A stretch of DNA of 50,140 bases from a virus (taxonomy: Duplodnaviria > Heunggongvirae > Uroviricota > Caudoviricetes): the IMG/VR virus record IMGVR_UViG_2522572023_000006. The stretch is one strand, 5' to 3'. The stretch's first letter is position 1; every line of letters begins with the position of its first letter. The translations under genes were made by a program, and so were the position numbers. Of this stretch, positions 25,521-25,990 are shown piece by piece. Below the pieces are notes generated by a model. The model saw only the letters and a list, made by a program, of their open reading frames with translations. It made no database searches and was not told the origin of the DNA.

Positions 25521-25835
25521 TTAGCATTTTTTTGACCGCGCGTTTCCGGACGTATTCTGTTCTCCTGTCCCTTTATATCGTCGGAATACCCGCCGCTCTT
25601 CAAATCCCATTCCCAACTCAGAATGTAGTCTGTTGACCGCTTGTTTTATTTCGGTCAGGTTCACCGGTGAAACCGGAGTCCGGCGCGCCTTACGCAAACA
25701 CTCTGCTCGTTTCTGTGCCGCCACTTTTCTTTTCTGGTCATCACTTAGCTGTACCATCACTTTTGCCCATCGTTCAGCTGCTCTCCGGTACAGTCCTTTT
25801 TTCTCCAGACATTCTGCCACGTGATCATGTAGCAT
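25521..25835 (-). CDS. PerC-family transcriptional regulator (Pch-like)
   Basis: 104-aa ORF with N-terminal EKKGLYRRAAERW signature typical of PerC/Pch proteins; prophage-borne Pch proteins are 104 aa. Confidence 0.55.
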   Translation of the reverse strand: MLHDHVAECLEKKGLYRRAAERWAKVMVQLSDDQKRKVAAQKRAECLRKARRTPVSPVNLTEIKQAVNRLHSELGMGFEERRVFRRYKGTGEQNTSGNARSKKC

Positions 25836-25889
25836 AAGTGACCTCCGATTATCTACAGACTGCCATCCTGAATTTACCTTCCCTTAATG

Positions 25890-25990
25890 AAATAACAATA
25901 AAAAACAAACCACGCAAAAACAATAAAACAACACACAAAAAAAACTAAATAATAAACAAAAATAATCACCTTATTTTATTATTTTTTGAG
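25890..25990. repeat. A/C-rich low-complexity tract
   Basis: Roughly 100 bp made almost entirely of A and C (aacaataaaaaacaaaccacgcaaaaacaataaaacaacacacaaaaaaaac...), upstream of the PerC-like gene on the minus strand. Confidence 0.7.

Follow-up and report, generated by a model that had tools for sequence, protein, structure and literature searches.

The stretch of DNA analyzed here, referred to as the window, is a 50,140-nt viral record (IMGVR_UViG_2522572023_000006) that carries a lambda-like prophage, the late genes of which lie on the − strand. Between the lysis genes and cos lies an ORF that the initial annotation had described as 104 aa long, with the N-terminal signature of PerC-family activators and the length of prophage-encoded Pch proteins. 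The boundaries and ATG start of this ORF were exact, and the suggested profile search against the PerC family (Pfam PF06069) gave a score of 149.3 bits (E 3.8e-44; gathering score 22.6), with residues 1–89 of 104 aligned to profile positions 1–89 of 90. The protein shares 104 of 104 residues with PchA of E. coli O157:H7 Sakai (ECs_1091, NP_309118.1), which is encoded in prophage Sp4 under the product name "transcriptional regulator PchA". The PerC homologues that we found are 84–108 aa long, and the protein in the window fits the family size of about 90–105 aa. UniRef labels the exact protein sequence "PchABC family transcriptional regulator", and RefSeq WP_001303878.1 is the protein annotated in the O26:H11, O111:H8, and O157 records examined. 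A PDB search returned no solved PerC relative.

At the nucleotide level, the stretch that begins at the end of Rz and stops 100 bp beyond the gene shares 909 of 911 positions with the Sakai pchA locus, and the two mismatches (at 26287 and 25506) leave the tract upstream of the gene and its leader unaffected. Sakai pchC (ECs_2737) is more distant: 28 of 851 nt differ from the window, 12 of them in the leader, and PchC matches the window protein at 102 of 104 residues (2 differences). Judged from these identities, the window holds a copy of pchA, which belongs to the group-1 pch genes found in attaching-and-effacing E. coli. The gene is therefore already known as an experimentally studied pchA allele, and existing knowledge of it does not change. 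Compared with the Sakai group-1 genes pchA, pchB, and pchC (in Sp4, Sp11, and Sp14), the window encodes PchA itself and carries the identical tract over its whole length. Sakai pchC in Sp14 occupies the same Rz–terminase interval as the gene in the window. Nothing of substance distinguishes the window from Sakai pchA, although the Sp4 block is inverted and IS-flanked, whereas the window retains the normal late-gene orientation. In Sp4 (L022; NC_002695.2, 1,182,130–1,189,826), the inversion comprises holin-endolysin-Rz-pchA, which run against the remaining prophage genes and have copies of IS629/IS1203 and ISEc8 on either side.

PchA is a virulence regulator of enterohaemorrhagic E. coli that activates its attachment machinery. 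Together with PchB and PchC it forms a set of PerC homologues encoded on prophages, without which LEE expression and adherence do not reach their full level (PMC4456613, PMC6265319). Activation of the LEE1/ler promoter has been reported for the identical protein PchA, and by binding to the regulatory region of LEE1/ler, Pch lifts the silencing by H-NS-family proteins, which turns on the type III secretion island (PMC4764244, PMC4456613). EPEC PerC (perABC, EAF plasmid, E2348/69) belongs to the same Pfam family, with about 47% identity over residues 2–88, and shares the LEE1/ler promoter as a target (PMC4456613, PMC4764244). Unlike pch, EPEC perC stands third in an operon, immediately behind perB, and it is plasmid-borne, shorter, and without a T/G-rich tract.

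Residues 7–47 of Pch also resembled the ANR family (NCBIfam), at a sub-threshold and chance-level score (13.6 bits, cut-off 32, E 0.046). Both H-NS and AraC-type regulators are bound by ANR proteins, and the resemblance, if real, would tie in with the anti-H-NS action of Pch.

Surroundings of pch in the late region

The features of the locus are listed in Table 1. Flanked by the terminase genes, Nu1, and cos on one side and by Rz and endolysin on the other, pch shows the lambda-like prophage carriage known for group-1 Pch. The 12-nt lambda cohesive end occurs once in the window (0 expected by chance), and its flanks read like those of lambda cos. The gene had been placed next to cos, and cosN indeed lies 513 bp past the pch stop codon, with the YlcI/YnfO-family ORF and a terminator in between. 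This terminator, a predicted hairpin of the form AAAAAGCGAC-N7-GTCGCTTTTT, folds with −14.7 kcal/mol on the − strand and −12.1 kcal/mol on the + strand (z −2.6 and −2.8). In some copies of the locus the YlcI/YnfO-family ORF is truncated or replaced, with a transposase of the IS3 family or part of nleH close by.

Table 1. Coordinates of the features at and around pch in the window
Feature	Coordinates	Strand	Basis or remark
Terminase large subunit	22374-24299	-	
Nu1	24274-24819	-	
cosN, 12-nt lambda cohesive end GGGCGGCGACCT	24997-25008	-	One exact match; landmark outside the pch unit
YlcI/YnfO-family (DUF3950) ORF, 74 aa	25215-25439	+	Between pch and cos
Bidirectional intrinsic terminator for pch (-) and YlcI/YnfO-family gene (+)	25458-25484	both	Predicted hairpin
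pch coding sequence, 104 aa, ATG start	25521..25835	-	ORF list; group-1 Pch
Predicted pairing site of the DicF 5′ end in the pch coding sequence (+79..+105)	25731..25757	-	RNAduplex
Shine-Dalgarno GGAGG, 6 nt before ATG	25842-25846	-	Read directly
Upstream segment moving with pch, ~155 bp, 73% A+T	25836..25990	-	Homology to plasmid relative L009 begins nearby
Low-complexity tract, core	25894-25962	-	Best A/C segment of the window
Hairpin and T-run	26070-26086		By the 46-codon ORF
Conserved 46-codon ORF MAKNDFCDKYFEYYLQVNGVGHMDRNITIENEVYARIVWAEKAKTR between Rz and pch	26078-26218	-	
Rz (lysis gene)	26301-26768	-	ORF list
Endolysin	27258-27791	-	ORF list
AgvB (anti-GcvB) sRNA gene	30557-30618	+	4.6 kb from tract
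DicF sRNA gene, same prophage	44140-44191	+	Rfam RF00039, 71.5 bits, above gathering score

The extra genes found between Rz and cos in lambda, such as bor, are not needed by the phage but benefit the lysogen. Like these morons, pch is an additional gene that ends in a terminator of its own and has been inserted after the lysis cassette and before cos; bor, however, points opposite to the late genes, whereas pch points the same way, so that read-through into pch on induction is possible. A scan of the interval between Rz and pch found no terminator-like site on the − strand, which makes such read-through from the late operon plausible. It would also fit the report that SOS induction raises group-1 pch transcripts (PMC6265319).

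The 46-codon ORF between Rz and pch is near-invariant across copies; it appears as "hypothetical protein" in many GenBank records and is unannotated in the RefSeq records examined. One E. albertii copy has it shortened to 31 codons, yet its DNA is still similar, so the conservation may not be for coding.

A 617-aa ORF (28556-30409, −) has a counterpart in related prophages annotated as a SASA-family esterase. Directly beside it lie the AgvB and STnc100 sRNA genes and a tRNA (30557-30618 +, 30619-30827 −, and 30947-31006 −, respectively). This arrangement leaves no room for stx genes near AgvB and the 617-aa ORF, and the element is thus taken to be a lambdoid prophage without stx. A sok antitoxin RNA at 35378-35553 (−; Rfam, 118.5 bits) implies a hok/sok-type toxin-antitoxin locus in the prophage.

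Composition and distribution of the upstream tract

The second claim of the initial annotation was an unusual tract, about 100 bp of almost pure A/C, directly upstream of the gene. The A/C bias is real, but the length was about 30% too high: the top-scoring A/C segment of the window is a core of 69 bp with 91% A/C, and widening it to 83–91 bp lowers the A/C content to 85–87%. The core lies upstream on the pch strand, as had been stated, without abutting the gene; it covers positions −127..−59 relative to the ATG, and the stretch between it and pch has ordinary composition and holds the Shine-Dalgarno sequence, which is unchanged across all aligned pch lineages. On the coding strand of pch the core is T/G-rich (50 T, 13 G, 5 A, and 1 C), and on the + strand it consists mainly of A-runs (72% A) with C interspersed. 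Local G+C falls to 22–23% around the tract. The composition goes well past what chance would give: when the best A/C or G/T segment was taken from each of 200 first-order Markov simulations of the window, the mean score was 19.4 (sd 2.3, maximum 28), compared with 45 for the observed segment, about 11 sd above.

The tract is distributed with its gene. Of 5426 complete E. coli genomes, 673 carry an 861-bp module (25440-26300), at 1883 places in all (median 3 per genome), and its gene is annotated "PerC family transcriptional regulator" everywhere. In 662 of 688 records, identity across the module is 99% or higher, and the copy of O145 strain RM9872 is 100% identical. A 175-bp leader query matched exactly the same 673 genomes as the pch gene. 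Loss of the tract from prophages that carry the gene, which had been named as evidence against a role, was thus not seen in these genomes. The only changes, and the only trace of the slippage suggested in the initial annotation, were of 1–3 nt in T-runs: among 13 copies read, the tract was 85–89 nt long and every difference was located in a T-run (T8/T7/T9, or TTTTTG shortened to TTTT). These natural T7/T8 length variants could serve as ready-made test alleles. The conservation itself weighs little, because the whole module is near-identical and perhaps young; a tract fixed to its gene in 673 genomes fits a regulatory role, but it also fits passive carriage by a module that spread recently. 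In a search of 50,697 phage records, the upstream region had one match, in a fragmentary record, and the Pch protein matched four phage records, one of them close.

More distant relatives retain the bias in part. The A25/E. albertii lineage, at about 90% protein identity, has kept a G/T-rich stretch of partly different sequence, and no part of the A25 copy is less conserved than the leader (75.6% identity vs. 91.7% for the whole module). A pch-like gene on an IncF plasmid, 78% identical, is homologous only from about −155 onward and retains a 32-nt T/G stretch at −126..−95. In eight homologue loci from plasmids and phages, which included E. albertii perC behind perB, SSB-adjacent perC of E. 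coli and Klebsiella plasmids, a Salmonella plasmid, and Fels-1, no such tract accompanied the distant PerC genes. A tract common to the whole PerC family was rejected on these eight loci, as it is present only in the close pch lineages. What is added here is modest, a 69-bp extreme core that is invariably linked to group-1 pch and absent from other PerC genes.

From these comparisons, the mobile unit appears to be the roughly 155 bp of upstream DNA together with the pch gene and its terminator. For this reason, we place the gene's own promoter within that upstream DNA. The plasmid relative points the same way: it has no convincing co-directional gene upstream, so its promoter should lie in the shared segment.

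The tract could also be DNA without function, a mutation-prone low-complexity filler at an insertion junction that was carried along by the recent spread of the module. The T-run length variants agree with this idea, as do the divergence of the A25 leader, the 12 of 28 window–pchC differences that fall in the leader, and the ability of distant PerC genes to work without such a tract. Against it stand the extremity of the bias relative to simulation and the recurrence of T/G richness at the same position in three diverged lineages. Tandem duplication is also not the source of the tract, since its periodicity is no stronger than that of shuffled sequence: Tandem Repeats Finder reported periods of 21 and 25 (scores 56–63), and the autocorrelation of 0.63 was reached by 39% of composition-matched shuffles. 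On balance, we regard a functionless tract as unlikely. An origin as a slippage array of longer units was discarded on the same evidence, the repeats not exceeding what composition gives and only homopolymer length varying.

Upstream of a 52%-identical PerC homologue in E. coli 64A:C (L010, ~1031-1170), TGTTGGTTCA occurs in three direct copies, after which its inverse, TGAACCAAC, also occurs three times. These repeats resemble an operator or iteron array and are quite unlike the pch tract.

Candidate roles of the tract

No function has been assigned to the tract in the accessible literature. With somewhat better than even confidence, we read it from sequence comparison as an AT-rich, promoter-proximal part of the control region of pch itself that acts through its composition. 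It is a real, gene-linked compositional oddity and not a new kind of element. In the proposed explanation, pch is a self-contained inserted gene, or moron, that closes the late region of a lambda-like prophage lacking stx; the − strand order is endolysin, Rz, small conserved ORF, tract, pch, terminator, cos, and terminase genes. The tract forms the core of the ~155-bp AT-rich segment that moves with pch, with no separate existence, and the segment would hold the pch promoter and the start of the 5′ leader. We infer that the tract acts mainly as DNA, as an easily melted, protein-coated AT-rich region upstream of the promoter. AT-rich control regions are usual for horizontally acquired genes.

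Several host regulators have been reported for pchA. Its expression responds to LrhA (PMC4456613), to butyrate through Lrp and LeuO (PMC4456613, PMC13012123), and to NtrC/sigma-S (PMC10714755). In a fur mutant the PchA protein is lower, an apparently indirect effect, as no Fur binding was seen at the pch promoters (PMC4090186). In the explanation favored here, LrhA, Lrp/LeuO with butyrate, and NtrC/sigma-S would set transcription at the segment, and on prophage induction pch would also be readable from the late operon.

The position of the promoter within this scheme was approached by a sigma-70 scan. The sole passing − strand site near pch lies at 26068..26040, outside the segment shared with the plasmid relative, and the scan found 2 sites where 2.5 are expected by chance. 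Within the shared 155 bp, no sigma-70-like site of at least 9/12 was found, and the accessible literature contained no mapped pch promoter or transcription start site. The tract may accordingly sit upstream of, downstream of, or across the pch transcription start. If the site at 26068..26040 is a real promoter, the tract lies entirely in the 5′ UTR.

Such a location would suit the main rival, a role of the tract at the RNA level, with functionless low-complexity DNA coming next. The transcript would then have a long U/G-rich, C-poor 5′ leader that offers a docking site for Hfq or S1, is a target of RNase E, or does not allow Rho to load. Transcription from 26068..26040 would give a leader of about 197 nt that includes the tract, in which the coding strand has 1 C in 69 nt; post-transcriptional control of pchA is already known; and what has been kept in the A25/E. 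albertii lineage, and in part in that of the plasmid copy, is T/G richness, not exact sequence. The promoter-like site, however, occurs at chance frequency and outside the plasmid-shared segment, and no Rfam family matches: with Rfam 15, nothing reached the gathering score at the pch locus, and the chance-level hits (E ≥1.2) included none in the tract. At its 5′ edge the tract has an AU hairpin, which folds no better than shuffled sequences, and the single RNase E CLASH hybrid with pchC maps to the coding sequence and not to the leader. We therefore treat an RNA-level role as possible but doubtful. The same AU inverted repeat (AAATAATAAA/TTTATTATTT; −6.5 kcal/mol, z −0.78 vs. shuffles) was rejected as a weak terminator. 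CsrA sites, considered for the GGA motifs in the interval between tract and Shine-Dalgarno sequence, were set aside, as by eye the A25 and E. albertii lineages have lost CAGGATG.

A more elaborate version of the RNA-level idea appears improbable to us. Here the nearly C-free U/G leader would allow an extended pch mRNA that is untranslated to evade Rho and recruit Hfq or S1, and the G-free A/C antisense strand would stop antisense transcription; alternatively, a new prophage sRNA at 25988-26095 (+) would share the control region. As a separate observation, a + strand promoter-like site is present at 25953-25982 (TAAACA-18-TATTAT), and about 100 nt further on lies the hairpin with its T-run (26070-26086). 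The possible divergent RNA of about 100 nt between them (25988-26095, +) has an unstructured C/A-rich 5′ part and a folding z of −2.16, and it had no match in Rfam.

The favored DNA-level reading was compared with known AT-rich promoters. As at H-NS-silenced promoters such as LEE1, the upstream region of pch is 73–80% A+T and belongs to a horizontally acquired regulator; unlike these regions, the pch tract has no high-affinity H-NS motif and no significant A-tract phasing. The H-NS motif TCGATAAATT had zero matches at ≤2 mismatches between 25836 and 26010, and H-NS binding at pch was not documented in the accessible literature. The A-runs of the tract are spaced by 15.5, 8.5, 14, and 19.5, and phasing at 10–11 bp was not significant (band power 0.84, reached by 15% of shuffles); curved DNA was rejected on this result. 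The missing H-NS motif and phasing count against the DNA-level reading. The tract nevertheless deserves mention in a promoter-dissection study.

Two further readings were rejected. In one, the tract would code for a hydrophobic leader peptide of only 31 aa (25874..25969, −, starting at a GTG), and this peptide would regulate pch or be a small membrane toxin. A frame from the same GTG is open for 27–31 codons in four of five sequence variants, but with 5 A in 69 nt of the coding strand, stop codons are rare by composition alone, and the scarcity of A explains the open frame. A one-base T-run variant (O111) shifts the frame, the sole Shine-Dalgarno-like AAGG abuts the GTG with zero spacing, and Pfam gave no match; such a peptide is very improbable.

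The other reading gives the A/C-rich + strand a function as a C/A-rich mimic of GcvB targets, like AgvB, or makes the G/U leader a target of AgvB. The tract and the AgvB seed have the 9-mer AACAACACA in common, a match whose chance probability we estimate at about 0.06 given the composition. The pairing of seed and leader (−13.3 kcal/mol) reaches only the 1st percentile of the 60-nt windows in the whole stretch, several unrelated sites elsewhere pair better, and no + strand promoter-like site was found upstream of the tract, so that we give this reading almost no credence.

Translation control and DicF

Translation of pch would be gated separately from transcription. According to published reports, pchA translation is blocked by pairing of the Shine-Dalgarno region with an anti-Shine-Dalgarno sequence in the coding sequence, and the sRNA DicF, which likewise base-pairs within the coding sequence, lifts this block (PMC7769764, PMC7873438, PMC13138055). 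AAGUG motifs that can pair with the flank of the Shine-Dalgarno sequence occur at +74, +90, and +110 of pch in the window. In the minimum-energy fold of −40..+150, the bases −7..−1 (GUCACUU) pair with +110..+116. The 5′ 24 nt of the window's own DicF pair with +79..+105 of pch at −24.2 kcal/mol (RNAduplex), and this predicted site covers one of the three AAGUG motifs. In outline, the predicted fold and DicF pairing agree with the published pchA model, in which case the flank of the Shine-Dalgarno sequence would pair with AAGUG in the coding sequence and the prophage-encoded DicF would pair there.

Since DicF and its target pch are encoded in one prophage, regulator and target can travel together. 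The DicF of the window presumably differs from that of K-12 in its 3′ half (ACTCCTTGGCTG).
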